The notes: generated by a model not told the origin, from the letters alone. 64,000 bases of DNA from Psammoneis japonica (GCA_008632985.1 QPGO01000262.1:1-64000), one strand, 5' to 3'. Positions 1-64,000 are shown, numbered from the stretch's first letter. Made by a program: numbers and translations.

Positions 1-399
1 TCTGTGGTGCAGCCCCAGCAGCCTGGTTCTCAAAATCTTTTGCGTGCTTTTCAAGGCAGACATCCCTCATGATCTTGGTTCTCTGGATGCCGAGAAATGG
101 AAATCACAGTGGGCCGCTCCAAAAAACACAAGCACATGAACACACAGATCTGTCTTTTTTACATGGATTTTTTTTAGCTGTCCACCTGGGCTGCCAATCT
201 TGATCTTTGTCAGAGCTTGAAAGGGCAAATGGAATCCTGCATTTTTTCATTCAATGCCCAACGATGCCACCATGACATTCAGCACCCATGACGGCTCAAG
301 TTTTGTCACCTTGTGGCAACAAGAAGAGCCTTTGTAGAACGGGAGCAATGCATGTGATCATGAGGGTGTTGTCTCAGCATCATGAAGCACTTGTGATTG

Positions 400-1450
400 G
401 CTTGTGTTTGATTTTAGACACAGCAAAACCATGCAGCAGATTTTGCAAACAGCGGCAATGGCGGCCCTGTTGTTGCAGGAAAAGGGACAGGTGACCTTTC
501 CATTGAATCCTCCACATTTGTTTTAGCCACGTGAGGTTCCATCATCGCGCTCGCCTTGGCTCTGGAGGCCTTGCAGCTTGCATTTGTGATGACACAACAA
601 CAGTGCAATTTTTTGCATGACAAACAATGCACTGTGTTCTTCACATGAGTTGCCACAGCTCATCTCATCTTTTGCACTGTGGATCATTGCTCAATCAACA
701 TTGTCAACTGCACTGAGCGGCGCGATGATTGGTTGATGAGAAGTTGCCACAAAAGGGATTCCAAAGCACCGCTGCGTTTCACGCCCATTTTTGTTATTGA
801 GATTCCTTCTTGTTTGTGTCACAAGGCAAAAAATCTGGCAGACGTGCCTTCGCATCTTCCAGATTTGTGCAAAAAAGACACAAATCCATGTGCTCATGAC
901 CCGATGATTCCGTGCAACACAAATTTGTGTTTTCATGTTTTCTGGAGTGACCCAGCATCAGCAGAGCCACAATGAAAAGAGCTGGCAAACAACGCCACCT
1001 TCAATGAACTTGCCTTGCACATTGTGTGGCTTGCGTTGCATGGGCAGCAACAAATGGCACAACACACTGCTTCCTTTCAATGCGGTGAAGCTGATGTCAT
1101 TCTTTCAACATGCTTGCTGGTTTTGCTCATGGTCTCTGTTCAACCATTTGCTTGTCAACCCATCTTTTCAATGGCACCAGGCACCCACTCCTTTGAATCT
1201 TTCATGCTTCCATGATGCTCAGCTGTGTCCTTGCCCATGTCTCTGATCCAACACAACCTTGCTGTGCCCTCTTTCAGCAGACCCTTGACAACTTCCCCAC
1301 AGCAAGGTCCTCCAGTGATTGTCTCTTTGCCTTCATCCAGCGAGCTTGTTTGCCACAATCCACTGACATGAGTTGTGCATTTGGGTTCTTGATGGCTTTC
1401 CAACTGGCCTCTCTGGCTTCTGTGTTGGGATTTCATGGCTTGCCAATTGG
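400..1450 (-). pseudogene. Highly degraded LTR-retrotransposon (Ty3/gypsy-like) reverse transcriptase remnant
   Basis: Minus-strand peptide scraps resemble gypsy RT (CHLLLPMQRKPHNVQGKF ~ YxYLRLPMG; FAQIWKMRRHV..IIAPLS ~ YRDMWxRRSHILAPL). Frames are broken and the DNA is TpA-depleted. Confidence 0.3.
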
Positions 1451-2039
1451 GGTGTGCTTGCTGGTCTCACCAACCCCCAAACTCACTGCATGGATTGCAA
1501 ACACAGCCATTTTCTTCACTGCTGCAGACAATGGCAACATTTTCATGTGTTGCTCACTGCATCTTCATGGGTTCTGCAGACTTGGCGCCCTTCCAGCCTC
1601 TTGTCTTGTGCCTCACTGTGAGTCTAGAAGGCAGCGGACATTCAGGGGATTGGGGTTGGCAACTGAAGGCCTTCATGTGAAGGGCATCAACAATGATGGG
1701 AGCAATGCACATTTTTGCAAGATGAGTCACAGTGCAAAGGATGAATCTCTGCTTTCTGTTGCTGGGGTGGACATGTTGGTGACTCTGAACAAGACAAAAA
1801 CTGCATGCATGGGTGACTTTAGAGAGCAGCTGCTTTGGTCCAGGGCACTGCCACCACCTCAGCAGGACTGTGCACTGATGACATGACACAGCAACACTGC
1901 CAAATGGGAGCAACAACCACACACAAATGCATCCAATGTGCAGCACACACACAAACATGTGTGCTCATGAGTTGCTGCTGTGACAGCAGCCAGGAAAACA
2001 GGGAACAAATCTGCGTGTGTGACTGTGTCCATTTGTCCA

Positions 2040-2136
2040 CCTTTGGCAAGTTTTGCAAGTTTGTCAACTTTGGCAATTTTGGCAAGTTTGGTGACTTTGG
2101 TGACTTTGGCAAGTTTGCTGAGTTTGGCGAATTGGC
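2040..2136 (+). repeat. Short array of the 9-bp satellite TTTGG(CA/TG/CG)A(C/G)
   Basis: About 10 tandem units such as tttggcaag, tttgtcaac and tttggtgac; same unit as the arrays at 3.5 kb and 13.2 kb. Confidence 0.9.
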
Positions 2137-2155
2137 AAGCAATGGGAGCATCTCA

Positions 2156-3383
2156 ATGTTTGTCAAGGAACAGATTGCTGGTGGCAACATGGACACTTCA
2201 AATTGGTCAGGAACTTGGGAGGAATGGGCAAAAAAGGTGGCAAAAAGGCAAATTAACAATCGCAGAAACACGGTGTGTTCGGCTGATGGGGCAGAGGCAA
2301 TGGCCCGCAAGCCAAGTGACCAATGTGTGTGGTTCGAGAGTTGTGCGCATCTCACAAGAAGATGACGGTGATGCTTCATCCATGTGGGCGTTGTCACTGA
2401 CAAAGAGGGAAAGGAAAAAGAAAAGAAACTCAAGGCGGCAGTCAGGAGGAAAAAGCAAGGCAGGAAAAAGTCAAGCCGGAACAAGAATGAAGAGAATGAC
2501 ATCCCGTTTGTGCCGACATGGGATCCGTTTAGCCTGGACACCATCACCGGCAGCAAACAAAGGAACAAGCAGGCATGCAAGTGGTTCTGTGATCACATCC
2601 TGCCTCAAACCATTCAAAAGCAGGCACGGAGCAGCACCATCAAAACTGGGGACGCACAGGTCTCACAGTTGTTTGCGGTCAGTGACAAAGCTTTGGCGCT
2701 GTTGGCCATGGAGAATTGTTGGCAGGTGTGGGCATGCAGGAACAAGGAGGAGGCGGTGGAAGAATTGGGTGAGGAAATGGAGCCCGAAGAAACAAGGCCT
2801 GCCCCTCAGCACATGAAGCCAAAGAAACAATGAGTGTCTTGGGGAGACGACGGAATCAATCGGTTCAACGATTTGTGCCAAGAGGTGACGAAAGATGGAG
2901 ACTCCAAGGAGGGAAAGGAGTTTGAAAAGCGACACGCAGAGATCAAGAAAAGTGAGCACGAGAAGTCTAGAGAAGCAAAAAAGAAGAAGAAGAAAGCACC
3001 GACCGGTGATGCGGAGAAGGTGAAGGCAATGAACAGCCCAATGGCGGAGAGCCGCAGGGACGACAACAGCAATGACAATGAGCAGGAGCAAGGTGCAAAA
3101 GGCAAAACGAATGACGGAGGAGACGAGTCCGATGGAGACGAGTCTGATGATGATTGTTGGCTCAGTTTGAGAGAGTTGCAGCAAGAAAATGTGTGCACAG
3201 TCAACACAGCACTCGGTCATTGCACTGCAGATGCAACAAGGGATTGACTTGGCCGATGAAATGCTTTTCTTGTTTAAAATGATGTTTGCGAAAATTGACA
3301 AACCAAGGATTGTGCGGCAATGCAATCATGCACTGGCATGTGGCAACAAGGCAGAGGCAGAAACATTGATGTGGACACAGTGA
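2156..3383 (+). pseudogene. Disrupted transposon-associated hypothetical gene, copy A (SDxALALLxMENxW...WxDDGIxRFNxL motif)
   Basis: ORF pieces 2384-2833 and 2834-3247 are in frame across one TGA. Motifs WSGTWEEWAKK, ACKWFCDHIL, SDKALALLAMENCW and GINRFNDL match copy B on the opposite strand. Confidence 0.55.
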
Positions 3384-3542
3384 AAAATGGCACACATGAT
3401 TCTTGACAAGTCATTGAAACATTGGTGCCAAACTTGCAACTGGAGGTTGGCCTGTCATCACACGACAACAATTTTTTGCAACATTTCGACAAATTGTCAT
3501 CGTGCAAATCTGCACATTTTTGACATTTCGTGCACTCTGATG

Positions 3543-4400
3543 AACTTTGGCAACTTTGGCAACTTTGGTGAGTTTGGCAACTTTGGCGAGTTTGTCAACT
3601 TTGGCAAGTTTGGTGAGTTTGGCAACTTTGGTGAGTTTGGCGAGTTTGGTGACTTTGGCAAGTTTGGCAACTTTGGCAAGTTTGGCAACTTTGGCAACTT
3701 TGGTGAGTTTGGCGAGTTTGGCAACTTTGGTGAGTTTGGCAAGCTTGACAACTTTGGCAAGTTTGGTGAGTTTGGCGAGTTTGGCAACTTTGGTGAGTTT
3801 GGCGAGTTTGGCGACTTTGGCAAGTTTGGCAACTTTGGCAAGTTTGGTGAGTTTGGCAAGCTTGACAACTTTGGCAAGTTTGGTGACTTTGGCAACTTTG
3901 GCAAGTTTGGCGAGTTTGGCAACTTTGGCAACTTTGGCGTGTTTGACAACTTTGGTGACTTTGGCAACTTTGGCAACTTTGGTGACTTTGGCAAATTTGG
4001 CAACTTTGGCGAGTTTGGCAACTTTGGCGAGTTTGGCAACTTTGGCAAGTTTGGTGAGTTTTGCGAGTTTGGCAAGTTTGGTGAGTTTGGCGAGTTTGAC
4101 ATTTTTGGCAACTTTGGCAAGTTTGGCGAGTTTGGCAACTTTGGCGACTTTGGCAAGTTTGACAACTTTGGCAAGTTTGGTGACTTTGGTGACTTTGGCA
4201 AGTTTGCTGACTTTGGCAAGTTTGGCAACTTCGGCAAGTTTGGCAACTTTGGCGAGTTTGGCAACTTTGGCAAGTTTGGCAACTTTGGCAAGTTTGGTGA
4301 GTTTGGCGAGTTTGTGGCAACTTTGGTGAGTTTGGCGAGTTTGACATTTTTGGCAAGTTTGGTGACTTTGGTGAGTTTGGCAACTTTGGCAAGTTTGGCA
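3543..4400 (+). repeat. 9-bp tandem satellite array (~860 bp)
   Basis: Continuous tttggcaac/tttggcaag/tttggtgag/tttggcgag/tttggtgac units. The FGN/FGK and LAT/LAS ORFs are translations of the repeat. Confidence 0.97.
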
Positions 4401-4878
4401 AGGCATCAGAGCGCGAAACACAGTGATCCTGACCACCCTTCTTGCAGGTGATTTTTGACACCATTGCAGGCACAAATGCAACAGTTTCATGTTGAGTGAG
4501 TTGTGTAGAACGTGATTTTTTATCATGTGTCACAGCATTGCATTTTTCACCATGGGACCCCTCCTTTGCCTGTGGGACCCCTCCCTTGGCTGTCAGAATT
4601 CTGTCACTTTTTACCTTTTGAAAGCAATGTTCACAACGTTTTGGTCAACAACAATTTAGTGCCAATCGTTGCGTTGCATTGGTTGAGAGAACCTTCCATT
4701 GCATGCGCTGGTTCTGTTGCATGCACTGGTTGTCAAACGAAAGGTTGGATCATAAAACAATGATCCCTTTGGTGCTTTGTCAAACCTCACAACTGTCAAC
4801 ATTGAAGCCCACTACATTGCTTGTCCTCTTTCCATTGTCACACCAACAAAAGCCTCCGCTGCCTTTTCGTGCCGCAGC

Positions 4879-6116
4879 TCACTCACCATCTGCATCTACA
4901 CTCGTGTCGCTTTCCGCATCACTGTCCTCCTCCCCTTCATCACTGTCCTCGTCTCCTCTGTTCTCGTCCATTGCCTCTTCCTCCTTCTCCTTGTCGTCAC
5001 TTGAAAGCTCTGTCGTTGCCTGTGTTCTTGCCTCCTCCACCTGCTTTTTCTTTCTTTTTGATCCCTTGCCTCTTTCGTCACTCTTCCTTTTCTTGCCTTT
5101 GCTGTGCCATGTGTCGAACTGAATGCCCTCCTCACTCAACCTGTCTTTCTTTGCTGCCGCAAGCAGTTTGTTGAATCGCTCAATCCCTGCATCTTTCCAC
5201 GAGTCTCATTGCCTTGACAGGTCCGTGCACTTGGGTGTTGGTTCCGACTCTTCCTCATCTTCTTCGTCCGAACCCCCCCCCTGCTGCAACAGTCTTGTCA
5301 TGACGTGCCTTGTGCTCCCAACTCTTCCAGCAGTTTTCCAATGTCAACAGCGCTGGAGCCTCGTCGCTCGCTGCAGCCAGACCGGTTGCCTTTGTCTCAC
5401 CCGACTCCACCTTCCTTCTCCATGTGGCGGTGCTCTTTGTGAATTTCAGGATGTTTTCGTAGAACCAAGCACATGCTTCTTTGTTCTTGCGCTTGTCCTC
5501 CACAATCGTTGTCACAGTCTCCTCCCCCCAAGTCGCCAGGAACGGCTCTTCCTCTTCCGTGCGATCGTTCTTCTTCCTCTTCTTGCTCTTCTTCCCACCT
5601 CTGCCCTTTGCTGCTGGCTTCTGACTGCGCATCTCCTCTGCTTCATTCTCTGTCAACACAACTTCAACAAATGAAGGTGCAGTTGTGTCAAGTGCAGCTG
5701 CACTCAACATGCCGTGCACCACAAAACACTTGCCAGCCGTTGCATTGTTCTTGATCGCCTGAGTGACCGTGCTCCTTTTCGCATTGATTGCGTGCATGAC
5801 GCACTTCTTTGCTCAGTCTTCCCACGCTCCCGCCCAGTCTCGCTTGCTGTGATTTCCTCCGGCTGTCTTTTTCCTGATGAGCCGCGACACTTTGCCGCTG
5901 CTTGCCATGTCCGCCTTGACAAGGAATTTTGCCTTTGGGAAAAGTTCCTTCCACGCCACCTCTTCTGCCTCTCTCTTTATAGACTGGTGATCCCCAGTGG
6001 CTCCCACCCGCACCAACGCTGCGGCCAGCCTTGGGCTTGTTGGCTGATCTCCAGCCACCCCCGCAGTTCCTTTCTTCTTCTTCCTTGCCATTGTCGCCAA
6101 TTGTGGGTGGCTCCAT
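4879..6116 (-). pseudogene. Disrupted transposon-associated hypothetical gene, copy B (paralog of 2156-3383)
   Basis: Motifs DWAGAWED, ACAWFYENIL, SDEAPALLTLENCW and AGIERFNKL occur across frameshifted pieces, followed by an acidic C-terminal tail. Confidence 0.55.
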
Positions 6117-7089
6117 GCCTTGTGTCCCAGTTGTTTTTGCCGTTGGAAAATTTTCAAACCTCTCTTTAATGCCAAAAATCTTGTGGTTGCCATCAATGAC
6201 TCCTTTTTCTCAAATGCAACACAATTGAGAATTGACCAAATCTTTTGATGTGCACGCAATTTGTCCATTTTGCCACTCCTTGCAATCTTGTGAAAATTTT
6301 GAATCATTGCGAATTCCAGTTCAAACCTCTCTTTTGCTGCAATTTCGAAATCCACTTCCACAGTGTAAATTGCTTGCAAAAGCACTTTGTTCAAAACATC
6401 ATTGTGAAACGTGTGCCTGCAAAAGTTGTTTTTGCTGCAATGAACAAACCCCTCACCTGCTTTGACGTTGTTCCGGTTTGCTGTTGGGGCCCAAGCACAT
6501 CCATCCTTTTGGTGCCAAATCGTTTTCTCTGGTCCAATTCGTCATCACCCTCTAACTTCGTAACTCTCAACTTGATGTGTCGCCCGATGTCGGAATGGTC
6601 AGTCATGTGGGTGAAAGCCCTCGTCTCCGCTCTGACCATTCTCACGAATTCATTAACTTCAACGCGACAACGTCTCTCCACCCAATGCTTTTCCTTTCTC
6701 CTGCTTTGAAATTTCTCCCGCTCACCATCCTCCTTCCGGATGATGTCCAGCATCCATTCATTGACTGTCCATGGAGATGACCTGAAGAACTCCATTTGCT
6801 CACAGAACCAAAGTCTTTCATGGTTGTCTCGCACGATGTCACACTGGAGCCACTTCGCCAGTTTTGGTGCATCGCAAACAATTCCCTTCTTGTCCATTGC
6901 AAGTCCGCATGTGCCTCCCCTTGCCAATGTTTCTCCCAACGGTCCGCAAGTGCCTGTCTCGTCCATGCCATGGGTCGGCATGCTGACACTCGAATGCAGC
7001 AAGCTTTCTCTGGCACAGAAAGCAAAAACAATGTCAGGTTCACCTGGTCCTGCTCCATTTCTTTCAAAAGAAGTGGAGGGAATGCGTTG

Positions 7090-7601
7090 GAGCAGGAGGT
7101 GACCTCACCGTCAACCTTGTTTGCAAAACCAAATTCCGCCACAAGAGCGGGAAAGACACTCACCACGCACACCCAGACTGCAACAGCGAAGGACCGGTTC
7201 ACGACTGGGCGAATGTTAACTTTGGCACAACTGGGGGGGAATTGTGCTTCCCGTCAAGACTTCGCTGTTTCTTCCAAAGGGAAAGCGACGGTGACTTGTG
7301 TGCGGTCGTTCACTCTTGCACGTGCCAGCCTGACAAGTGTGCCATGGTTGAACGAATGCAACACACCGACCTGGTCAGTCGCTGGCAATTGGACCAAGTG
7401 AAGAACAACAACTTGTCCTCTGCTGAACAAACAGTGCACTCACCCAAGCTTTTCTTGGTGCCCATCGACGCTGTTGGCGACAAATTGTTGGTGTGTGAGG
7501 AGCAACCCGGCATTGCTGAGACACACGACAGGACAAAGCATGTTTGGGTGGTTCAAGACCGCAGAAACACATGGGGAGAGCTGTTTCACAAAAGCAGGTG
7601 A
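7090..7601 (+). pseudogene. C-terminal fragment of a Plavaka-like transposase-associated protein
   Basis: Reads THHAHPDCNSEGPVHDWANVNF...CFPSRLRCFF, matching the (F/Y)RAHPxY...GPWYDWAxVxF...PAxxxxF motif I recall from Plavaka-type proteins once H/C are read back as Y. Confidence 0.5.
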
Positions 7602-7637
7602 AAAGCATGTGAGCATCCGACAACAGCAGCAGAAAAC

Positions 7638-10600
7638 TTAATTGGGGCAACAAGGACAACAGAGACAACGTTCACTCACCTGCTTTGGCAATCTACTCAC
7701 AAATCCGACTGGGAACCAGTGTGGCAAATAACTCCCAGGCCATTTCCTCAACTCATCCCTGAAATCAGGAATTCTCCTCTCGAAGGACAGGAGTGGGAAC
7801 GGCTCCTTCGGGTTGCAATTTCCACACTCTCGTAGGAACTCTAGGACTGAATCAGCTTCTTCATGTGGCAGCGTTTCCCGAATTTCCTGTTCTGTGACTC
7901 CCAAATGCAATGCTTCCTGGTCAGATGGTTTTCCCAGCCAATCCACACGGTGCTCCTCCACAATCTCCTGGGAAGCCTGGCAGAGCGTCACTGTTTCACA
8001 TGCCATGTCCTGTGTCATGGCCTGCACCAGTGCGCACTCCAAAATGTCATCCAAATTGTGCATGGTTTGGGCCAGTGACCAAATGGTGCACGGGATTATG
8101 ACGCGGCACCTCTGGAGCTTTGGATGAAACAACGTTTCCATCACATCCCTCAGGTTTTTGCCAAAGAAGCGATTTCCGAGTGTTGACTGCAGCCACTCCC
8201 CTTTTTGCATCCAGCGGCAGTCCATGCAGATCTGAACAAAGCCACTTTTCTTAAAATCAATCACTGCTCCAAACCGCGTCTTGACCCTTTGGGCAAAATT
8301 CTTGGCGGACATGTTGCAATTCAAGTGACAAGCGGGGCTGCCATCCTGTGGGGACACAGTGCATGCACGAACATTTGAGTTCATAAAGAGATCCTGAACG
8401 ACTTGACACCTTGCCTCATCTCTTCTTTGCTGAGTGGATCGGACAGCCTCCACGCCATGGTCCGAACATGTCTCATCTAATGTCAGGTTTCCAGCCATGA
8501 CGGGCCTCGTCATGCAAAGCCACAGGACATTTGCACCTCCGTCAGGAGGAGTCACACTGCGGACCAAGATTTGTGAAAAACATGACACCAAACAATTGCA
8601 GGAGTTCTTCGGCTGTTGACAGACTTGCTCAAAAATGGCATTCACACATTTGTCCATGTCAAAATCTTGCACTTGTAAAAGGACTGGTGGCTCGGGTTGA
8701 TCGTACGCGGTTGCGTTGCTTGTGTCATCTTCATCGGATTCTTGATCCTGCGACTGAAGGATGACAGAATCTGCCGTGACAATTGGAACGCGGCAGTCAG
8801 AATCAGGACACGAGCAGTCCTCTGACAACACAGACTCCTCCAAAGACAATGAGCTGAGTTCATTGTCTGCGGCGAGTCAAGACTCCTCTGAATCCAATGA
8901 ACTTAGTTCTTTCTCCGCGTCAAATCGACAATCCTCCAAAGACAATGAGCTAAGTTCATTGTTTGTGGCGAGTCTAGACTCCTCCAATGACAATGAGCTA
9001 AGTTCATTGTCTGCAGGTGGTCCATCAACAGCAGAGAAAACACTGGCACCGTCTGATTGCACGGCTGATTCACACACAAATGTGCGCGATTCAGCACTGT
9101 CTTGTGATTGGCAAAGGTTGGGGTCGTCATCAACACACTCCAAAATTTCACACTCGGTTGACCCATGTGGCTTGCGGAGATGCTGCCCAGAGGGAGAGAA
9201 GGCAAACAGGTCTTGTCCTGAACAGGGTCCTTGGAAAACACAACCAAAAATGTGGGTGCAGCGATTGTCTGAATTCTCACAAAGTTTGTGCTCGGTTCCA
9301 TTCCAACTGTGCTCTTCGGTTCCTGTTTCGGATGACATCCTTTGGTGCATGAGCGGCCTTTCTTCCAGTTGAATGTGCCCCAGTTGTGCAGCAGCTCCCG
9401 AATTGAAGACAGGACAGACAATGTCATTGAGTCTTGGATGGTCTTTCACTGCGACACCTGCCAGCACCAGACATTGCAGCACCAACATGAGACGAATCTC
9501 ACTGAAATCTGCTCCCCGGTCTGCCCAAGCATCACATGCTGCCTTGCACCGTTGTTCCATTAAGTTGGGACAGAACTCATTGGTGTTGACATTGTTGTTT
9601 ATCCAGAGAAGCACAGCATGGATTTCTTCCACCATTGCATCAATTGGGTCATTCGCGGTTCCGACGCAACAAGGGTCTAGAAATGCATCGCAAAATTTCT
9701 GGTGCATCAAATTGGCAGGGCTGATCCTGCCCACCTGTGGGTCACCGCATGGCACCCCAAATGTGTTCTGCAAGCAATTGGCAAAGTTGACAAACGGGTC
9801 AGCACCTTCGCAACAAAGGTTGGGAAGATGCTTGTCCCCCACGCAGTAAAATCGGTGATGTCCGGTGGGACAACCAGCATGGATCGCCAAATGAATGACT
9901 CGTTTTGGGTTGGGACCCAATCGGCACACAATGTTCTTGAAATGGCAGATCACTGTGACTGGGGCAGATGGGTGGAAGTCCCCAACTGGGAAAGTTGGGA
10001 ACTTGAGTCGATCCATGCACACCTCGACACATGAAGAGTCGCCACCTCCACCAATGAGAACATTGTCCCATGGCCTGTTGTTGTCAAGGGAAAGATGCTT
10101 GAATGCAATGCTGGAAAGCAACACATCGGGGTGGGTGGGACCATCATGCTGCAAGTCCAAGTCTTTAAGTGCAAAATCAAGCTGAGCTTGATTGTGGTGC
10201 ATGCGAGTGAGCATGGGCTTCATGTCGCACTGGTCGTCGTGGTGTTCACCAATGGTCCTTCTGCTGTTGGCAACAACCTTGAAGGACCAGACATCGCCAA
10301 AGGCATCCATGACAAAGAAGCAACCGGCAGCTGTCTTCCTGTGTCAACGCCAGGTGCAGTTTTTATTGTCACAGTGACCATCACAGACTTGACCCCGGGA
10401 AATGCACAATCCCTGCATGGTGACGTCCTCACGTTTGAAGAAGAGACAGCCCATTTTGTTGCCCAACTTTTGCGAGTGTTCCTCGTGCCGAAGTGACCAG
10501 TCAAATGGTGGTGGATTGCTCAGTTTTTTCAGCTCTGCCTCATTTTCGCAAAGCTGAATCGAGCCAAGGATGTCGGCTGCCATCGCCTTGATTTTGGAGG

Positions 10601-51781: not shown

Positions 51782-52026
51782 TGTATCTAGAGTAGAGATA
51801 AGATTCAGATTGACAGAGTGACTTTAAGCGATCCAAAGATGATGTCCATTGCGCCGAGGACATTGCGGTCTTTTTTATGCTTCTTCTCATCAACTTCTCA
51901 ACAACTCTTCTGCGAGGTCTGTCAGGTGTACGGAAAGGAGGCATACGCCATGATACCTTACATAACACCTGCCGTAATCATTTTGACACCTCATTTGCAA
52001 TCAATCCCCATCAACCGAAAACGGCA

Positions 52027-52560: not shown

Positions 52561-53047
52561 GTTATAGCGAGCGTGTAAACTGGCGTTTGTTGTGTCCTTG
52601 ACAAGCAAGAGGTCGTTTTGATTGAAGACATGCGGGTATGATGATGGATAACTTTCTTATTTGTTAGGAAAAAGCCCTACCGGTATCCTCACATTTTACT
52701 TATTGGTCCTTTAGATTTGCACCGCGAAAAGTACTTATTAGGTCCCGTTTATACTGTACTCCAAAACGTTGTTACTTTGTTCACTATCACAAAGTCATAC
52801 CCAAGCACGGTGGTCGATTGCTCAATCAATACATGCTACTGTCAGAGCTTGTTCAACCGCGCGTTTACGACATTTTTTGAAGTGTGCGATCGAACAGCCG
52901 CTATAGTCTTGATGTACGATCAACCTTGTGTTGACTGTTCCGTCGGTCATCATCGATAGATCATCCAAGGAGCAAAGGATAGAAAAAGAGAGAGAAAAAG
53001 AAAGCAAACGTATCATTCCATGATTTACTTTAGTCATATACTGTCGT

Positions 53048-56000
53048 TCAAAGTGCCTTCACCCGAATCCTCTTTACAACCCGTCCTTTGGTGTCCAAGA
53101 CCAGCTTGAAAATATTGGGTTCATCTGAAACATCACTCAGAGGGACTACTTCTGACCTAGCGCTACTGGGTGGAGGCGGGGGTACTTCAATGGTTCCTTC
53201 TCTTGAAACAAAGAGCGTTTCTTTACCAGTCCGGTAAAACACCATTACCTTCAACAAGGAATGCACTCCTTGCTTTGCAGCTGCCTTTGGACTAGCAAAG
53301 TCCCCAACTACCTGCGAACGAAGAAACATTCCTGGCTGATTCAAGGGAGAGCGTTTCGATCGGAAAACTAGGGAACCAGATCGTTTCTTCTTGGAGACAA
53401 TTGTCACGAGCACCGGATCCTCAACGTGTACGAATTTTGCATTGGATTCGTCATTTCTTGCAAGACCCGAAATGGCAAGGATCTCTTCACGTTCGTAGCT
53501 TGCTTTTCCATAATTCTGGTAGTCGTGGTTCTTGCAATAGTTGAGCAGATAATCCGGGGAAGGATCAAAAATCTTGCAGTAGCTCGGAAGAGTTTTCGTC
53601 AACGCCAAATACGTGCAGCAACTGAACCTTTCGTTTACCGCTCCAACTGGAAAGCTAAGATCATACATGAAGGACTTACCCGCGACAAAGTAGCCCATGT
53701 TTCCGCAACCCGGGAAGCATTTGACTCTATCGTATCCTTCGGGCTGGTTCTCTCTTCCCATAAGGTCGGACCATTTGTCGCACGATTTGCTAGCACAATT
53801 TGCAGCCGAGTCGTGACCACGTCCATAAGGGTACTCATCCGCCAATTCAAATAGCGAGTGACCAAGCTCATGCACCGCAATTAAAGGGGCTTCAGGATTT
53901 GTAGTCACAGCAGCAATGTTGGCATTGGTGTAGCCAGCACCCGCATACTGTTCCGAGTGATGAATCACAATCGTTTGAAGATTGGGACCAATTGGGAAGC
54001 ATTTGCTAGCCAATGTGTGGGTACGATGGTTGTCGCAGCTACAGATTGAATTGGAAAAAGTAAGGTGAGACCGAAGTAAAGGTCACGGTTGTCGTGGAGA
54101 TTTGGCGGGCTCAAAAAAAAATATAGTCTTACCATAACAATCGATCAATTCCTTGACAATTTGAATCACAAAACGATGAGCCTAACTCAAACGGATCAAC
54201 CATGAATACATTGAGCACATCAATGTCGTCTGCAAACATGCTGTAGTTTTGCATAACCTTATACGTCTTGTTGACCTGTTCTTGCCAAGCTTTGTGACCG
54301 ATGGAGTCGAAAGCCGAGGGAACAAACACAATGTTGATTCTGTCTTTGTGAAAGGGAGTACCAAACTTGTGCTTGATTGGAAAGCACGCAGATGATGCCA
54401 TACACACGCCGCTCCTGCATGTTGATGACTTGCACTCGGAATTGCTCGAGCAAGGTTTACCATTATCAATTGATGTGACATTTGCTACTACCGTGCTCTC
54501 CAACCCCCCTCCACCACCGCGCTGTCGATCGGGTTTGGTTTCCAGCTTTGCGGAAAAATCAGTTGGTAGCTTTGATGGGGGCGTTGTTGGGTTTTGTGTT
54601 GGAGAAGATGTAGGTGGTGAAGTTACGGGATGGGCTGTCGGACCTAGAGTTTGAGCAGTAGGTCGAGAAGTTGGACGACTCGTCGGTGACATTGTCGGGC
54701 TCGTTGTAGGTGGTGAAGTTGGTTTCATAGTAGGCTGCATGCTAGGTTTCATTGTAGGCTCAGCCGTAGGAACTAGCGTTGGATACAACGTCGGGGTACG
54801 AGTAGGCCCCATTGTAGGCCCCGCCGTTGGATACTTTGTAACACGTCTCTCTTTCGACAAGAACAAATGATTGAGCGCCCTACCAGAACCATCCCCTGTG
54901 TTGCTTGTCATTCGGTAAGCCTTGTCCCAAGAAAGAGTATCCCCATCCCAACGACAAAAGTTGGCGTTCTTCTTCATGTCTTGAAGGGATAACATGATGT
55001 CATTCCCATTCCTAAAAGAAGCCAATCGTATTGTTTTTGGATGGCCTTCAAGTGTTGGGCCGTCGTTCTCGCTTGACCACCCGTTGAACTTAGACCAAGT
55101 TCTATATTTCAAATCCTTCACGCTTGCTGTTACCTTCAGGGACAACCATGGGGTTTTCAACTGCGCGCCCGCGGACTTTTTCTTCGTATACGCTGCAATA
55201 GCCTGCCCTGATGTACCTTCAAATTGGACGGCAAGCTCGTCGAGAGGTTGTTCATCTACATCTGTGCTCGCAATTTGGACCGAATCCCATATATCAATGT
55301 CTCCATCCCAGACAGCCAACCAAAAGGCATTTGGACTCTTTGATGTGACTCCTAACGCGATGAGGTTGCTCGTACGATCGGAGCTCAAGCTGATTTGCAT
55401 CACGTTGCCTGTGATGTCTTTGGGATGTACAAGAGATTGATCATATACATCACTCCAGTCAGTTCCGTCCCAAATGCAAAATGCTGGTGACAATGAATCC
55501 TTTTGCCGAAGACAACTATCGCTCTTCCACTGTGCTGCTCGTAAGCAATGTCGATCGCGTTTTCATCCCCATCTTTGTCATTGTTCAATTTGAATTCCGT
55601 TTGCCAATCGTCCCCATCCCACACCATACAGTAGGTGGAAGACCCCTTTGCAGAAATAACGAGGATCATTTCATTTGACCTGGGATTAGAAGCCAGGAGT
55701 AGTCGAGTGTTCGTGCCGCTGGTCACAGGAGAATCAAAGCTTGACTGAGGGCCCCATGAAGTGCCGCTCCACTTTCGATAGTAAATAGTGTCTTCCCAGC
55801 CGACACTCCATATCAACATTGCGTTTCCACTTTGAGACTCGTATGCAACATCGAATCCATCGAGAAAGCTATCATCTACATAAATGTCGAGGGGTGAGAA
55901 AGGGACATTGCTCCAAACACCTCCCGAGTACATTTGAGCGATGACTTGGTTTTCTTCGGATGATCCAACGACAAGTGCTTCTTCACGAGTTGGTGAATAT

Positions 56001-56191
56001 GCACCCTGAATAGTGTGCCATGTACCAGCTGAGAATTTCATAGAACCAGAATCGGAGAATTTGTCACCGTCCCAAATAGAATATCCAGGCGCCTTTGCGC
56101 TTTTCGCAAATATGGCTATTCCTTCGTCAAAGTCCACGGCCATTGCCGAGGCAACGAGCGAAGCAAAAAAGACCAAGAGCATGCTGCGCAT
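53048..56191 (-). CDS. Secreted multidomain protein with Pro/Thr linker and M64-like zinc metallopeptidase domain
   Basis: Signal peptide, repeated W(D/S)GxxW beta segments, PT repeats and HELGHSLFELADEY. Intron 54039-54132; one frameshift at the T4 run near 55501. Confidence 0.75.
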
Positions 56192-56802
56192 CAACCACAA
56201 GTCGCAGGAACAATGCCGAAATATGTTCACAAGTTTGGTAGTTTTGATCGCCATACAATGTTCCTTGATTGTTTTTAGAGTGCCATACATGCAATGTGAG
56301 CAATTTGGCCCGTCGTTAGTGACCAAAACCGGATCTGTTGATGATTTAACCCTCGCAAGTCATTGGAATTGAAACTTTTAGGACGAAAGAACGTCCCAAA
56401 TGTCTCTGTTTGATGACTTCTTATTCTCCGACATTCAGACTGTACCACTTACTTAGGGCCCTAGTACCGTACTGGGCGGGGTGGTAGGACTGGCAGCGTA
56501 CTGTATGTACCCTCTCTACTGTACTACTCTCCAGCTAGCTAGCTCTACAGTAGAACCGTAGAGAGTGGATAGTGTGTCAGGTCGACCTTCGCTTGTATGT
56601 ACCACATGGACGTGTGCAAGACAAATTCTGGCAGCGAAGATGACAGTGACTCTTCCATGCTGTACACTTACGTAGAACAAGGGATCATTGCATCATGACA
56701 TGACTCAATTCTCTATGATCTTTATTTATGCCCTCTGTTCTTTCATTTGGGTGTCTATGACCATAACACATGACCTTTTTGCATGACATGACTGGTTGTG
56801 AC

Positions 56803-59800
56803 CAGAGGTGCATAAATCGTCTGTTGTCGCCCGCGTGCAACGCACGAACGACAAAACGATGAGGTGGCTCACGCGCGTAGATCGTCCACTGAAGATTTGT
56901 CACGATGTGCTGTACCTGAGAGAAATTTTGTGGGGCGAAAAACGATTCGCTCGCCAAAAACACACACAACAACACGATACATCAACAGCACTTCAGACAG
57001 CTCTCTTTGGAAAGCAGAGCAGTAACACCTCGACCCAATGCTTCCTTTTTCATTTACATTGTCTTCTTCATTTATGATGGCAAGCAAAGTTCAGCGGCAC
57101 TGTGGGTGATGGAGAAAATGTGCAATTTAGACTTGCAGCCTCAGTGTTTTTTTCTTTGCGTTTGCCGTCAGGTGTTTCGGCATTGGCGTCTCTCCGGATG
57201 CAATTTCCCCGGCAATCATGCGTTCTCAGCATCAGACATGTCCCACATGACAACATGTCAAAAGGGTCCGGCAGCATCACAACTGTGAGTTGATCGCTCC
57301 GAATGGGTTTGGTTGCGTGTCTAATTTTGGTGATGCAAAACGGTGCGCAATTTACACGAGCTTGTGTTTTTCCTGTTTTTACAGTTTGTGGTTGGGACAG
57401 ATGTCAAAGCAATGCTCTCATCTAATCCATCATCTGTTTGTTGTGCCATTGCCACAGGAAATGTCTGTCAGTTGATCGCATCTGAATTGGGTTGGCTGCA
57501 AGCATTGTTTTGGCGAAGCAAGACAATGGTGCACAGTTTTCATGCGCTCGCATTGGCTGCTGCATGGTTCACGGCTTGGATTGCTGCATGTCGAACATGT
57601 GCTCTCACGGACTCCATTGTCTGTGTCTTGTGCCAATGTCGCAGGAGACACAAATCAATTCGCATCCAATCTGAATTGATTTGCTTGCATCCATTTTTTG
57701 GAGAATCAAAACGGCACGCATTTCTCATGAACACGCATTCTCCGCATTGTGCAGTTTGTGGTTTGGACAGCTGCATGTCGAACAAACACTCTCATGGACT
57801 CTTTTGTCCATTTCTTGTGCCAATGCCACAGGAATTGTCAATGGACTTAGTTGACGCTTCACGGGCTGTCGTGCATGCATGCGTGACAGAGCACATCGGG
57901 GTCCACAGTTTTGCACAGTCATTGTGGATGAGCTGGGCATGAACAGAAAGGCAAGATTCAACTGTGAACCATTGTCTGTTGCTCTCCTTCATCTGTTGTT
58001 TTGGTGGTTCAAAGCGGTGCGCATTCCCATGAGCTGGTGTGTTCCGCTTTGCAAGTTTGGTTTCTGTGACTGCATGTCAAAGCAATGCTCTCATGGACTG
58101 TGTTGTCTGTTTCTTGTGCCATTGCCACAGGAACCATCTGTTTCTCGTAACATCACCACAGGAACTGTCTGTCAGTTTGTCAAATCCGAATTGATTTGGA
58201 TGCATCTGTTGTTCGGGAGATTTAAGATGGCACAACTTGTCACACACCCACGTTCTCCGCTTTGTGCAGTTCATGGCTTGGACAGCAACATGTCGAAGAA
58301 ATGTTCTCACGAATTCCATTGTCTGCTGCTTGTGCCTTGGCCATGGGAATGTCAACGGACCTTTTGGCTTGATGGGCTGTTGTGCGTGCATTCGTGGTGT
58401 TGCGTCGGTGTCCGCAGTTTTGTGTCAACATTGTGGATGAGCCAGGTGTGGCAATGTTTGGACAGCCAGATCTTGAAGCAATGTCACCAATGAGGAACGC
58501 AGTCAAATCTATGAACTGTCCCTTCCATTGTCTGATGCAGTGCAAGGATCAGCTTAGATCCTGTCTAGATCTCCCCTTTCGATGGGCAGAACTCGGAACA
58601 GTCTGCTGGTGGGTTCAGTTCTCATGTTGTGCTTTCGTGTTGAATGTTCTGCTTCTCTGGAAATGACGCTTGCCTCTCAAACTCTTGCTGTTCTGTGTGC
58701 AAGAAGCGAGAGGTCGGGTGCCTTGCATGTGCTGATGCACGTCCGTGGTTTTACACAAGACGAGCTAGAGCACAAGACAAGATTGTTCAAGAACTGGACT
58801 TGACCGCAACGATTCTTTCTTGCTTTGGTTTTGACCAGCATGACATTGTGCTTTCAATGCGACCAGAACAGCAACGCATTCCAATCACGGCTGTCGCAGG
58901 TGTGAAAATGGTGGAGTCCGGCAAGCTCACGGTTCGCAGCCGCAAAGAAGGCGACCTTGCTTCATTCAGCATCTGTGCTTGTGATTGCCTTCAGCAATGG
59001 CTTGATGGTCAGAATCCCAGAAGCAACCCAGTTTTGAGCAATGGCATTGTTGGGTTTCCCTTTTCTCAAACGCAAAACAATGGGCCGGGTGTGCAGACAC
59101 GGCAGAGTCGTCAAGCATTCTCACTTCATTGCAGCACAGTCCATTCCACTGGAAATCTGTTTCTTCTAGGTTCTCAAGGCCAGAAGCAGAAGTGGGAATG
59201 GAGATCACAGTTTCATTGAAATGCTCCCAGTGCCACGTAAAGGATCCAACTCGACATGAGCTCCGTCCTTGGCAGCATGACACATGGACTTGCAATTGCA
59301 TTCCTCTCCATCAACTTCAGGTGAAAATGGAGCCTTGCAATGACCATTTCACCTTTTCCTTTGAAGCCCTGTCCAACCAAGTGAACAAACAATGCTCTCA
59401 AAGCAATGGTCGATCCCTTTTTCCCGCATGGAACTCTGCAACAAGCCAACAGCGGATGCGCAGTCTTGGTGGCGATTCAGCACTGAGCAATCTCTTTGCA
59501 ATGGCATTCGGAATCACTCCAATGCCATTGGCACAGATCACATGCCAGCAACTGTGACCTTGGCATGTTGCATTGAGTGTGTGATGTCAGCACAAGTGAT
59601 TGTGTTGTCGGTTGTGGCAGAACATGAACGCAAACTTGTCGGTTGTTGTGCGTTGCGTCGCGGTGAATTTCTGGTCATTTCGGATTTCGCCCCACAAAAA
59701 TTCTCTCAGGCACAGCACATCGTGACAGGCAGAAGCACCAGCGTGATCCACCTCATCGTTTTGTCGTTCGTGTGCGCGCTGAGTGTGCGAGTGTGCGTGT

Positions 59801-59832
59801 GCGAACGACAACAGACGATTTGTGCACCTCTG
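56803..59832. mobile_element. hAT-type element (3030 bp; 8-bp TSD GTTGTGAC; TIR CAGAGGTGCA(T/C)AAATCG...) with degraded interior
   Basis: TSD at 56795-56802 and 59833-59840, and a ~140-bp imperfect TIR. About five ~190-bp degenerate internal repeats lie at 57400-58450. Confidence 0.8.
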
Positions 59833-60811
59833 GTTGTGACGTGACCTGGGCTAAATGAATGATGTCATGCAAAAGGGTTGAGGGCCGAAGGCCCTCAATT
59901 GTGTCAAAGTGGGAGAGGAAGAGAGGAGGAGAAAAGAAAGGAGAAAAGAGAGAAGGAAGGAGTCAGAGTCGATGGCACATTTTTGGTCAATGCCACAACT
60001 CATCTGCAGCTTTCTGCACTTTCAGGCCAGCCACACTTTTGGTTTGGAAAAACATGCTCTCTGCAACAATCCCTTCACATGAGCTGAGAGCAAGGCTCAG
60101 CGACTGCTCTGCACAAATCCAAAAGGGAAGGCCATCCACAGATTGAGGGCGAGGGGCAAGGTGCCGTGCCTGTTTGGAGTGTTTGTCATCAAAAAAGCTC
60201 TCAACAGGTGTGCTCTTGATGCTGCCAGTTTTGCACACTCTCTGGGTGCTTGCTCTGGAGATTTCTTTCAAGCATGTTGTGCAGCCAGTTTTTGGGACTT
60301 GTGCACTTGCATTCTTTTCTGCCCTCTTTTGCTTCGTGCAGCAGCGCCCAGATGCAGAGCAAGTCAACTCTGTGTTCAAAACTTCTGAAAAGACTGTGTC
60401 TGAGCAATGCATCCAGGCAGGTGCAATGGCTTGCCCCAATGTGTGGATGAGCATTGTGCTCATTTGTCTGTCTCCAACACTCTTGAGTCTGTCTTTCTCT
60501 TTGTGCGGGCAGCTCTCTGTCAAAGATTTCTGGGCAGACAAACAATTTCCAAGTTGGCATGAATCATGAATTCTTTGCTGCCTCAACCATTTCAGCTTCT
60601 GTCCATGATGGGTCAGGGGGTGTTGGAGCATGCTTGAGCAACTGTCAGCTGTGCAGCACACTCATCTGTTGCCCAGGTGTGCTTTTTTCTCAGGTCGTTT
60701 TCTGATTTTAAGCACATTCTGTAATTTCCAAAAAAGCCCTCCCCTTCTTTTGATTGCTTTTGTGGGCACCACAAAAGGTGTGTCACCTTCATCAATGCAA
60801 GGCAGCTGGCT

Positions 60812-61208
60812 GACGGGTTCCAGTCCCAGGTGGGACTCCGTGTGACATTGGGACCGCAGAATTCTACGTGCGAGCTCCGCAGCACATTTGCACTGCAATG
60901 AAAATGTGAATGATCGCCAACAGAAAAAGAGGCAATTTTACGAACATGTCTCCTCCTTCACACTTGCAGCACATCATTGATGGTTTGCCCGGGTGCGTTC
61001 TTCAGACATTGAAGAACACACCCAGCGCATTTTTGTTTTCACAAATGTTGAAAACAGAAAGCCTTTGGCTTTGCAAAACAGGGAGTGTGAAACAATTTTG
61101 TAGAATTTCACATGTAGAAATGTGCGCGCGCGACACACGACGCGATCCAAAAAACTGTTGATGTCACAGTGCAGCAGTGCGAGGTCCCACCTAGAGCTGG
61201 AACGCGTC
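60812..61208. mobile_element. 397-bp MITE, family 2 (TSD GGCT)
   Basis: ggct|gacgggttccagtcccaggtggga ... tcccacctagagctggaacgcgtc|ggct. Confidence 0.88.
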
Positions 61209-62275
61209 GGCTGCATTCCATCAGTGTCCCAAGGCATGCTTGAGCTGCTGGGGGTGAGCTCTGCCTGTTTCCAATTTCAGTGCCTGCCCATCACATCTGA
61301 GCACACAGCACCAGATGATGGCTGTGGTGGCAACTGTGATTGATTCACAACTGGATGTTTTGCTTGAAGAACGCAGTCCTCGAGGGTTGGGAAGCCATGG
61401 CAGACGGGAAAAAACTGCAACAGTGGTGAAGAGGTCCTCTTTCGTCTTCAAGTTTTTTCTCAATGCACAAAGATTGATTGTCCGTCACGAGGAATTTCAT
61501 CTTGTGTGGAAATCTGCGACACGACACACCGGAAAATCACACAAGGGGAAAAATTCAATGCTGGAGGCTGCAACATGCTGCATGCAGAAAATGTGGTGTG
61601 CGTGTTGCAGGCACACCACAGGCTGCGAGACGCTCTGTGGAGCCTCCTGGTGTGTTGCATTGCAGCGCATCGAAGGCATGCAAGAAAGCTGCGATGCGCT
61701 CACGCAGCCCAAGTGAGTCTTTTTTCGACAGCACTTCAACATGATCCCACTTGTTTTCCCGTGTCCTTGCAATGTTCCCCCTTTGTCGGTCTCTGTCATT
61801 GAATGGCACATTCTCACCCAAGCTTTGACAGCAGACATGAAAAACTTTTCTCTTTCTCTTCAGCTCTCCAGCAGTGACAGGCCCCAACCCCTGCAACACC
61901 TGGGATGGCACTGACAACCTTGGTCTTGTCGACCCCGCAGTCGAGGGCATTTGATTTGTGCAGCTGGGTGTTTTCTCGGTTCAGCAATGGCAAGTGTGTG
62001 CTCATGAAATGTTCAACAACAGCTGTTTCCACTCACACAGTCAATGTTCCTTCTGCTGCTGTGCAGCCGGACAAGAGTGCAGCCTCATGTGACAAGCAAG
62101 CACTCGTGAAATGTTCAACAACAACTGCCTCCATTGATGTGGTCAACATTTTTTCTGCTGTGCAGCCAGGCAAGAGTGCAGCCTCATTTGTGCTCATGCC
62201 CATGTCTTGAGCAAAGCACACCCCACTTTTCCTTGTCCAAAACTTTGCAGCCATGTGCAAAGTTTCGCTTTTTTT

Positions 62276-62851
62276 GATGTGTTCCAGCCATGCGCAAACC
62301 AAAGCAAGCAGAAAAACAACACTTGCACAATTTTCACATGGCCTCTAACTTGCAAACAAGCTTTCACTGCCAAAATTGCAGATTTGTCCAAATTTCAATG
62401 TTTTGCAACACTGACAAGACTCACGTCAGTGCTGCAGTGTGTGGTTGTTTGTGTGCGGCCAATGTTTTTTTCATTGCGACAAATGAGTTGCAACACAACG
62501 GATGACTTTTGCCAAAATTTTTGAGAACTCATGTGCTGTTGCTGCTCACAGGCTAACACTGGACATTTTTGTGTGCATTTTGTGGTGGTGGTGTGCTTGC
62601 ACAAAAATTTCTGCAAGATGAGCAATGGCGCACAGTTGGCATCATTTCCACAGGATGATTTTGTGACAAATGTTCTCTGTGAAGACTTGAGCACCCATGA
62701 AAAAATCGCTCATGTGTTCATTCTCCCATCAAACAGAAAAGCCAGAATGGGCAAGCTTTTTTGTGAACAGCCCAAATGTGCAAACCTCATGTGATTTGTG
62801 CTCAAATCAGGTTGTTGTTTTCTTGTGCATCACCTGGGACTGGAGCACGTC
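62276..62851. mobile_element. 576-bp MITE, family 3 (TSD TTTT)
   Basis: tttt|gatgtgttccagcc ... cacctgggactggagcacgtc|tttt; interior homologous to 23147-23631. Confidence 0.75.
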
Positions 62852-62989
62852 TTTTCTCCAAAATTTTTGCTGTCTTCCTTTCATGTGTCCCTTTGCTTGT
62901 TGCAAGAACACCCATGCTGCATTTCTTCATTTGCTTTCAACTTGCAGCCTTGATTCTTGCCCATTGCTTGCGTGTGCACCATGCTTGAA

Positions 62990-64000
62990 GAATGAGCACA
63001 AACAAAAGCAGAGCAAAGCACAAAAAGTGAGAATTGTGAGATTGGATTTTGCTCAATCATTTTGGGATTCTCTGAACAGGCTCTCAATGGCCCAAAGCTT
63101 TTGTGCCAGTCCTGCAGACCAAGAGGCCTTTCAGAGAATGTGCTCGTGACAACAGATTGTCTGGGCACGATTGCCATTGACACACAAGATGTCAACATCG
63201 TCAAGCAATTGCACCTGCAATTTTCGACATCCAATCAACTCTGTTTGATCATTCTGTCCATTGCACAAACCCACGATTGACGTGCGATTGAACACAATGC
63301 AATGTTTGAGTCCACACATGCACACATGAAATGTGTGTGACAGTGCATGCTGCGTTCACCTCCCCAATTGCACATTGGAGTCATTTGCCAAACGGCGCAA
63401 TGCAACGGACATTGACAGCATCAATGATGTCACCATGTTTGATCTGTGCTGTGCCACCAGTGTGCGCCGTTGTCATCACACATGGTCCAACATGGGGCTG
63501 CTCTAATTTCTGCAAGTCTTTCTCAAGTGGCATCTTCTCTCCTGCTCTGTGTGCGCTGGATTGGTTTCCAGTCTGTGATGTGTTGGACGTCAAATGTCAT
63601 GTCTCTGTCAAAGACCAACTGTCCTGGTGCAGCTTGCATCACAGCATGATGCATGGATCGCACTGCAAATGCCACTGCTGACAATGTTCCAGCGAAAGGA
63701 TCCTCAGCATCCAGAGGTGCATGTTGCAAATCAAATGCACGGATCACATTTCCCAGCACTTGATGCACCCATTCAACAACTGTGTTTGCTTTTGGATTTT
63801 GTGCAGTTGTTGGGGCTTGACTTTGATGCCATGATCATCTTGCACCACATCTTTAAATTGGTGCCCAATGAACTCACTTCCACGGTCGCATGCAATTGAC
63901 AATGGCCAAGGATGCCTGCTCAGCCATGTCCATTCTAACAGCCCAGCTGCAGTTGTGGATTCCTTGCTTGGAATTTCCACAACTTCAAACCATCCGGTTG
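62990..64000 (-). mobile_element. Ty3/gypsy integrase C-terminal half, PPT and LTR-like segment (runs off the window end)
   Basis: WLSRHPWPLSIACDRGSEFIGH, MHQVLGNVIRAFDL, APGQLVFDRDM and KLEQPHVGPC. PPT ggggaggtgaa at ~63355-63365. Confidence 0.85.

Follow-up and report, generated by a model that had tools for sequence, protein, structure and literature searches.

The window studied here, a single 64-kb stretch of DNA (64,000 nucleotides, one strand) from the diatom Psammoneis japonica (GCA_008632985.1, QPGO01000262.1:1-64000, positions counted from its first letter), carries two gene islands set among transposon relics, satellite arrays and a transposon-like element with RecQ-like and DUF6589-family genes. 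The subject of this report is the dinucleotide TpA, which is nearly absent from the transposon and satellite DNA and normal in the gene islands. The TpA analysis was confined to this window. In total, the window holds 867 TpA, an observed/expected ratio (O/E) of 0.20, next to an O/E of 1.57 for CpA and 1.47 for TpG.

TpA-poor blocks and gene islands

Counted in 1-kb windows, TpA O/E is 0.00-0.16 in the TpA-poor blocks and 0.37-0.73 in the gene islands. The blocks were called by a two-state hidden Markov model (HMM), run on the base following each T. The model returned TpA-poor blocks at 1-27403, 37466-40822, 41546-50965 and 57133-63999 (TpA O/E of 0.05, 0.05, 0.09 and 0.06) and normal blocks at 27404-37462, 40835-41540 and 50969-57128 (0.54, 0.65 and 0.60). 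The changes of state are abrupt. For example, the TA at 27204 is followed by TAs at 27404, 27459 and 27480, and the TA at 50818 by those at 50969, 50992 and 51005. Lists of TA positions place the edges at 27204/27404, 37886/38969, 40712/40835, 41540/41744, 50818/50969 and 57423/57848; two HMM edges (37466 and 57133) are better set at ~37890 and ~57425 by these lists, and the borders resolve mostly to 100-200 bp. With the position-list edges, the TpA-poor blocks contain 176 TA for 12,377 T and the normal ones 675 for 4,705 T (Fisher odds ratio of 0.086, p ~1e-229). The near-saturated loss spans 46 of the 64 kb, satellites included. The blocks and their main features are the following:

1..27204, TpA-poor block 1: TpA O/E 0.05, CpG O/E 0.46; degenerate transposon relics and satellites
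3543..4402, 9-bp satellite TTTGGCAAS, array 1, inside TpA-poor block 1
7641..12652, minus strand, chain of four open reading frames (ORFs), ~1670 codons with 3 Tyr; 2 in-frame stops, 1 frameshift
13201..15062, 9-bp satellite TTTGGCAAS, array 2, in TpA-poor block 1
19180-19728, plus strand, weak Ty3/gypsy-type RNase H match (Pfam RT_RNaseH), in block 1
27404..37886, gene island: TpA O/E 0.54, CpG O/E 1.02
37890..40822, TpA-poor block 2: TpA O/E ~0.05; high-copy repeats, summed depth in the DNA run X1 (see below) ~200-1500 per bin versus ~54 for single copy
40835..41540, TpA-normal patch: O/E 0.65; in the RecQ/DUF6589 element's left terminal repeat
41546..50965, TpA-poor block 3: TpA O/E 0.09, CpG O/E 0.76
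41583..43106, plus strand, RecQ-like helicase ORF: 508 amino acids (aa), 1 Tyr
43795..48015, minus strand, DUF6589-family ORF: 1407 aa; 15 of 16 conserved Tyr positions converted
50969..57423, gene island: TpA O/E 0.60; includes a peptidase M64-like gene
57425..64000, TpA-poor block 4: TpA O/E 0.06; relics of transposons that have paralogous stretches in block 1
63747-63998, minus strand, weak integrase match (Pfam rve), in block 4

An earlier sequence-only reading had delimited the TpA-poor intervals, counted the tyrosines in the transposon proteins and pointed to altered gypsy motifs. Its coordinates are almost identical to the edges given by the TA positions, and its counts are exact: 5 Tyr in the 1407-aa ORF, 1 in the 508-aa RecQ-like ORF and 3 in the ~1670 codons at 7641-12652. 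The Tyr content of the host proteins in the window is 1.0-4.7%. The motifs are also present, namely HPNF (19501, plus strand), VCMDH (19654, plus strand), RCPWP (22288, minus strand) and RHPWP (63917, minus strand), and lie in or near the weak RT_RNaseH and rve matches. A comparison of the RNase H piece with its PDB relatives, probing the ancestral Tyr at these gypsy motifs, gave a chance match only.

Direction, strand symmetry and sequence context of the change

The direction of the change was determined from the 1407-aa ORF. Its sole full-length homologue in an index of 5.8 billion proteins, P0001 (Pfam DUF6589), is 31% identical (E 7e-162). The ORF retains only one of the 44 aligned Tyr of P0001; ten are Cys and seven are His. 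An exhaustive phmmer search with ORF residues 480-1280 gave 520 relatives, the best 150 of which, together with P0001 (151 sequences), were used for a column test. A column was taken as conserved when at least 10 homologues covered it and one residue occurred in at least half of them. At the 16 Tyr columns (at least 50% Tyr), the ORF has TGY (Cys) at nine, CAY (His) at five, TGG (Trp) at one and TAT at one. Of the conserved columns other than Tyr, 200 of 240 are retained (Fisher p 2.4e-10 versus the Tyr columns), including Trp 8/8, Asp 12/12, Gln 10/10, Gly 22/24 and Arg 17/19. The median Tyr content is 3.57% in the best 150 of the 520 homologues versus 0.5% in the ORF, and among those of at least 150 aa only 1 of 132 falls below 1%. 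Judged against these homologues, the protein demonstrably had an ancestor of normal Tyr content, which lost nearly all its Tyr codons by the two single transitions that remove TA and otherwise changed little. This agrees with the substitution that had been proposed, TAY to TGY or CAY, at 14 of the 16 conserved Tyr columns.

The same family answers the objection, raised by the sequence-only reading against itself, that such copies might be TpA-poor by design. Related loci in metagenomes, with 28-40% identity to the ORF, have a TpA O/E of 0.53-0.71 in 15 out of 15 cases; the DUF6589 family is thus not TpA-poor by nature. The RecQ-like ORF aligns to BLM/RecQ, too weakly for a comparison of Tyr columns. 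The chain of ORFs at 7641-12652 (minus strand) is too long for chance at the local stop density and is probably a hypermutated transposon protein, now dead. Its uninterrupted ORF at 8880-10343 (minus strand) had no homologue among proteins of near length (longer and shorter lengths were not searched), and a search of the ESM Atlas gave no usable match.

Comparison of copies shows when the change took place. Half of the time, two copies that each resolve the same TA independently will end up as TG in one and CA in the other, which is an adjacent double difference. Four alignments of paralogues within the window, with 1488 columns and 216 transitions, contain 75 adjacent double transitions. CA<->TG makes up 46 of these and TA<->CG is not among them; each other class has 4-10. 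Contigs were also available from one public DNA run (X1; platform not on record) with two small companion runs. At a likeness of at least 85%, the X1 contigs differ from the window by A>G 182, G>A 234, C>T 217 and T>C 165 times, with each transversion at 28-49; TG<->CA pairs account for 16 of the 40 best-supported differences listed (8 pairs; there are 1043 further differences). Transitions dominate, and CA<->TG is the leading doublet. These doublets show timing, after copying, and not the ancestral dinucleotide, as CpG decay can give the same doublet; the larger share of them was assigned to ancestral TA by the homologue test and the mass balance described below. In the terminal repeats of the RecQ/DUF6589 element (41383-41545; 95 identities, 30 transitions and 13 transversions), a left-arm TA faces a right-arm TG four times and CA once. 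The reverse, a right-arm TA opposite TG or CA in the left arm, does not occur.

Both strands are affected. Six non-satellite TpA-poor segments contain 4390 TG and 4449 CA, and the two follow each other at random along the DNA (runs z of -1.25 to +1.61). Together with the Cys:His ratio of 9:5, these near-equal and unclustered numbers indicate that both strands were struck site by site, with no long one-strand tracts, in line with the claimed action on either strand.

The surviving TAs are a non-random sample of contexts. Survival of each NTAN class, calculated as TpA-poor versus normal blocks with classes pooled with their reverse complements, is as follows:

ATAT, 0 (0 versus 43)
ATAC, 0.014
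ATAG, 0.021
GTAC, 0.037
ATAA, 0.054
CTAC, 0.11
GTAA, 0.17
CTAG, 0.23
CTAA, 0.25
TTAA, 1.2 (31 versus 10)

A second baseline, 70 kb of unmutated relatives, leaves this order unchanged, with TTAA at 0.27. A model with independent escape of the two strands fits the data; the fitted per-strand value depends on which base follows the changed A on its 3' side (T 0.06, C 0.21-0.27, G 0.37-0.40, A 0.5-0.9). On the strand that carries the changed A, the counts establish a hierarchy of TAT > TAC > TAG >> TAA, with TTAA spared. It is equivalent to a 5' preference of A>G>C>>T for a changed T on the other strand.

The dinucleotide balance separates this process from CpG decay. Between normal and TpA-poor blocks, the density of TA drops by 35.9 per kb (39.9 to 4.0) and that of CG by 22.4, a sum of 58.3, and TG+CA rises by 62.6. 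AA and TT are not depleted (AA 82.0 versus 74.2 per kb), AG shows no rise, and CC goes from 51.8 to 47.7 per kb, so there is no conversion of TC to CC. The largest trinucleotide gains are those of GCA and TGC (~2-fold), followed by CAC, CAG, ACA, GTG and CTG, which are the products expected from conversion of GTA, TAC, TAG, ATA and CTA. The drop in ApT and the rise in GpC result from the same conversion. Assuming an ancestor like the normal blocks, the gain of 1.4 points in GC decomposes into +3.6 from TA conversion and -2.2 from CpG decay. CpG is itself depleted in the TpA-poor blocks (O/E 0.46-0.76), its loss supplying 22 of the 63 TG/CA gained per kb, and TpA loss is the larger term. At 42001-48000, CpG O/E is still 0.78-0.97 with TpA O/E at 0.06-0.16, and conserved Arg is kept at 17 of 19 columns; the TpA process therefore outpaces ordinary CpG decay. 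The view that neither CpG decay nor repeat-induced point mutation (RIP) of fungi explains the loss of TpA is upheld by this balance. CpG loss in the blocks also depends on context: ACGA, TCGA and ACGT stand at 0.36-0.50 of the gene-island level, and GCGC, at 1.57-fold above that level, has lost no CpG.

Nature of the proposed mutator and its targets

At the level of sequence, the comparisons above establish the direction of the change, its dinucleotide specificity, strand symmetry and neighbour hierarchy, its confinement to blocks and its action after the divergence of copies. They are best explained by a TpA-specific mutator working on DNA itself (T:A->C:G at 5'-TA-3') and acting selectively on silenced mobile and satellite DNA, a reading that we consider very probable. 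Such a mutator would turn TA into TG or CA according to the strand struck. Mutation would follow insertion, independently in each copy and on both strands, and proceed nearly to saturation, and the transposon proteins would be ruined permanently by missense changes (Tyr to Cys/His and similar). We infer that the process is enzymatic and a genome defence.

As to its chemistry, the tRNA adenosine deaminases TadA and ADAT2 offer a precedent, and so do the laboratory adenine base editors derived from TadA. The adenosine on which these enzymes naturally act, A34, is preceded by the invariant U33, which gives a 5'-U/T-A preference, and inosine made from adenine reads as G. We know of no demonstration of natural TadA/ADAT2 activity on algal chromosomal DNA. 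By analogy with these enzymes, a deaminase of the TadA/ADAT2 type working on DNA would deaminate the adenine of TpA to inosine, and this is the leading candidate for the chemistry, at somewhat less than an even chance.

With the same targeting, the thymine could be the modified base instead. In this alternative, the thymine of TpA would be converted, for example to 5-hydroxymethyluracil (5hmU) by a dioxygenase of the TET/JBP type, and mispairing or error-prone repair would yield T->C. Changes of T->C and A->G on opposite strands look identical in all of our data. In the accessible text of PMC11572971, 5hmU marks and silences transposons of dinoflagellates, and older work cited there found T replaced preferentially in TA and TC. 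Against this, a genome-wide 5hmU map of Breviolum has no strong sequence preference, according to the part of PMC11071213 available, and the TC->CC change is absent here, with CC falling instead of rising. No evidence of 5hmU in diatoms was found, and none was sought. Thymine chemistry is rather unlikely, although it is the most serious of the rivals.

Error-prone patch repair of methylated DNA, with A->G errors like those of polymerase eta (Pol eta), was also considered. The signature of this polymerase is WA->WG (W being A or T), known from the second phase of somatic hypermutation in antibody genes. The loss of CpG in the blocks makes methylation-linked lesions plausible. However, AA is undepleted and AG not raised, so a 5' T is strictly required, and TpA is nearly gone at 42001-48000, where CpG loss is slight. 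WA mutagenesis of this kind was rejected on the undepleted AA and is improbable.

A further candidate is hyperediting of transposon transcripts, from A to inosine, by an ADAR-like enzyme, fixed through reverse transcription. ADARs prefer a 5' U, as stated in the accessible part of a preprint (bioRxiv 10.64898/2026.01.13.699255), and some relics in the window are retroelements. The outcomes are nevertheless strand-symmetric and unclustered, which led to the rejection of RNA editing. Moreover, the best-studied element resembles a DNA transposon, satellites and non-coding DNA are equally affected, and the TG/CA alternatives arose after copying. RNA editing is thus highly improbable.

The sequence itself could be wrong, if a modified base of TpA had been misread as G in long reads and left unpolished. 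The platform of the assembly is not on record, and repeats are where polishing fails. A misread base would demand ~36 differences per kb. In comparison, X1 contigs, which are built from accurate reads and have a word depth of ~54-61, match the TpA-poor DNA with 5 differences at 49210-50247, 3 at 39537-40465 and 7 at 48374-49002, thus 3-7 per 0.6-1 kb. One contig of 2911 bases crosses from TpA-poor DNA into the gene island (50219-53129) with 11 differences. In addition, paralogous contigs hold alternative TG/CA states, and the ORF is open and homologous across 1407 codons, its changes codon-consistent. A long-read basecalling artefact is unlikely, to the same high degree as RNA editing, and was rejected because the read contigs agree. 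Contigs of X2 fall on no TpA-poor part of 36000-55999, and no conclusion was drawn from them. X2 behaves like cDNA: one contig omits 102 bases (51563-51664) that are present in an X1 contig. The second gene island thus probably has an unannotated gene with an intron at this place.

Finally, an origin with no special mutator, in which the DNA is TpA-poor by descent or selection (horizontal transfer, codon bias) and CpG decay or GC-biased gene conversion does the rest, would account for part of the TG/CA excess (the 22 of 63 per kb from CpG decay) and is the least credible of all, as relatives of the same family are TpA-normal, replacement of conserved Tyr damages the protein, unrelated families, satellites and non-coding DNA are alike with sharp edges, and general AT->GC conversion would deplete AA and TT; both TpA poverty by design and GC-biased conversion were rejected on these grounds.

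The very probable reading, a TpA-specific mutator of silenced DNA, has several points weighing against it. For the neighbour hierarchy, host genes or distant relatives served as baselines in place of true ancestors, and the direct inference of ancestral states, made from alignments, comes from one transposon family. The word defence is deduced from the outcome. A change of A to G on one strand looks the same as T->C on the complementary one, which bears on the deamination chemistry. X1 is probably the source sample of the assembly and hence not an independent confirmation, and the support is limited to a single 64-kb window, which bears on genome-wide generality. Two regions do not fit a simple targeting rule: the patch at 40835-41540 is very high-copy yet TpA-normal, and ~1.7 kb at 49210-50965 is TpA-poor yet single-copy in X1.

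Targeting has to be seen in the light of these two regions and of the FCP genes. The tandem FCP (fucoxanthin chlorophyll a/c) genes at 27735-28383 and 28876-29525 are 96.5% identical over 650 bp and TpA-normal. Because of the spared high-copy patch, the TpA-poor single-copy DNA and the intact FCP duplicate, neither copy number nor homology appears to be the cue. A chromatin or silencing state would be the likelier target; episodic activity together with the time elapsed since insertion would also fit better than copy number. The process had been described as restricted to repeats and aimed at repeat chromatin. Its confinement to transposon and satellite blocks holds; 'repeat-restricted' is too simple in view of the spared patch and the FCP duplicate.

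The RecQ/DUF6589 element, ~7.7 kb at 40699-48378, is bounded by terminal inverted repeats (TIRs) of ~430 bp that are homologous throughout and looks like a TIR DNA transposon. Both repeats carry an identical start codon and first 23 codons, so that two convergent genes (RecQ-like and DUF6589) share one N-terminus and upstream region. Read contigs link 40703 straight to 48428, a junction that may represent the empty site. A 538-bp insert (40807-41344), which appears internally palindromic, sits in the loop of a hairpin; in the other arm this hairpin is a perfect 24-nt palindrome (48196-48247). The TpA-normal patch consists of the insert and ~200 bp of the arm, with an X1 summed depth of 1700-3000 versus 54 and coverage by X2. 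This patch could be a repeat that is young and expressed, or else a stretch that is transcribed and protected.

Among the other features, the first gene island (27404..37886) encodes, according to Pfam, two FCP proteins, a CXXC zinc-binding protein, an SNF2 helicase, a nitroreductase/EF-hand protein and Rrp15p. Only diatoms occur among the best named relatives of the FCP protein (74-86% identity): Odontella, Helicotheca, Minutocellus, Extubocellulus, Triceratium and Pseudo-nitzschia. The two FCP genes differ at 22 positions, 8 of them CA/CG and 3 TA/TG, and are the sole pair listed by a tblastx comparison of the window with itself after removal of satellites. The TTTGGCAAS satellite is also scored with periods of 18 and 27, and its translation mimics collagen and His-rich Pfam repeats. 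Scans of the window for tRNAs and Rfam families gave no match.

Relation to known systems and consequences

The closest known case is that of the alga Bigelowiella natans, as described in a preprint of 2026 (Mettrop et al., bioRxiv 10.64898/2026.01.13.699255). Of 231 mutations that arose in two regions of integrated virus in the mutation-accumulation lines, 230 were A->G/T->C, all at TpA, at rates ~1000-fold over background. The long-term footprint is mild (TpA rho 0.45 in an insert from a nucleocytoplasmic large DNA virus, NCLDV), and domains of reverse transcriptase and DDE transposase are over-represented in TpA-poor coding sequences. The authors proposed a DNA adenine deaminase and cite action of ADAT2 on DNA in amphioxus and trypanosomes. 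The words 'diatom', 'stramenopile' and 'trinucleotide' do not occur in the accessible text.

Both systems change TpA only to TpG/CpA, on both strands and in foreign DNA, and leave low TpA with high CpA+TpG. As far as the preprint's accessible text goes, they differ in host and substrate, B. natans being a chlorarachniophyte (rhizarian) in which integrated NCLDV and virophage DNA is hit, and P. japonica a diatom (stramenopile) with transposons and satellites. They also differ in degree, with cluster cut-offs in B. natans of TpA at most 0.43 and CpA+TpG at least 1.52, compared to a TpA O/E of 0.05-0.09 here. Mutation rates were measured directly in B. natans; here, a footprint was read. A neighbour preference is not reported in the text available for B. 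natans, in contrast to the TAT>TAC>TAG>>TAA order with spared TTAA in P. japonica, where CpG decay is also seen alongside TpA loss.

RIP of ascomycete fungi resembles the present process in that irreversible, dinucleotide-specific transitions ruin mobile DNA, copy by copy after duplication, in distinct blocks beside normal genes. Its C->T changes, made for the most part at CpA, generate an excess of TpA, stop codons and AT-rich blocks, whereas here TpA is down ten-fold and GC up by 1.4 points. RIP needs a cytosine methyltransferase of the RID/Dim-2 type and acts before meiosis. It is triggered by duplication; here the 650-bp FCP duplicate and the high-copy patch are TpA-normal, and some TpA-poor DNA is single-copy at present, which may not have been so in the past. 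Decay of CpG by deamination of 5-methylcytosine also yields TpG/CpA and is present in the blocks, but it cannot remove TpA and is slower here than the TpA process; diatom transposons are methylated, according to the part of PMC9998398 available. APOBEC3 and ADAR of animals are likewise deaminases that hypermutate mobile or foreign nucleic acids in a specific context. They act on one strand of cDNA or RNA, with clustered and asymmetric results, unlike the unclustered changes on both strands of resident DNA seen here.

No diatom report of TpA->TpG/CpA hypermutation was found in the literature, where the matches on TpA/TpG/CpA in transposons all concern fungal RIP; subscription journals and supplements were mostly beyond reach, so a mention in a genome paper is possible. 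The sequence-only reading had taken the process as undescribed. No diatom description was found, in agreement with this; the kind of process is already described in B. natans, as far as the preprint's accessible text shows (bioRxiv 10.64898/2026.01.13.699255). It is therefore the first diatom case as far as found, and not categorically new. Its footprint is much nearer to completion than that of B. natans, and a neighbour-base signature and a clear ordering relative to CpG decay are added. More tentatively than the chemistry itself, it is conceivable that diatoms and chlorarachniophytes share an ancient defence by a DNA adenine deaminase, guided to silenced transposon, satellite and viral DNA and acting at 5'-T-A-B-3' on either strand, possibly widespread among the stramenopiles, alveolates and rhizarians.

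There are consequences for annotation. The process would make no stop codons other than by TAA->TGA, and would remove TAA and TAG. Hardly any stop other than TGA remains, with TAA 151, TAG 92 and TGA 2069 counted on both strands. Near-extinction of TAA and TAG leads to long, overlapping false ORFs in several frames and on both strands; examples in the blocks are 3384-4644, 13115-15274 and 45184-46503. A first Pfam scan (125 ORFs of at least 140 aa, whole window) gave 3 weak transposon-type matches, namely Helicase_C and two RNase H models that hit a single ORF, and its collagen-like matches in the TpA-poor blocks are the 9-bp satellite. A second scan (134 shorter ORFs) added one more weak transposon-type match, rve. 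The mutated transposon proteins mostly drop below Pfam detection, and both gene and repeat annotation of such genomes stand to be misled.

The case would extend to diatoms, a major and genetically tractable group, a defence principle reported once, in a preprint on a rhizarian alga, and in this diatom the process runs to saturation on ordinary transposons. A shared defence by adenine deamination, if true, would be the chemical mirror image of fungal RIP. The saturated trinucleotide signature provides a test that any candidate enzyme must pass. If true, a natural A:T->G:C editor of chromosomal DNA would matter both for the biology of mutagenesis and for base-editing technology.

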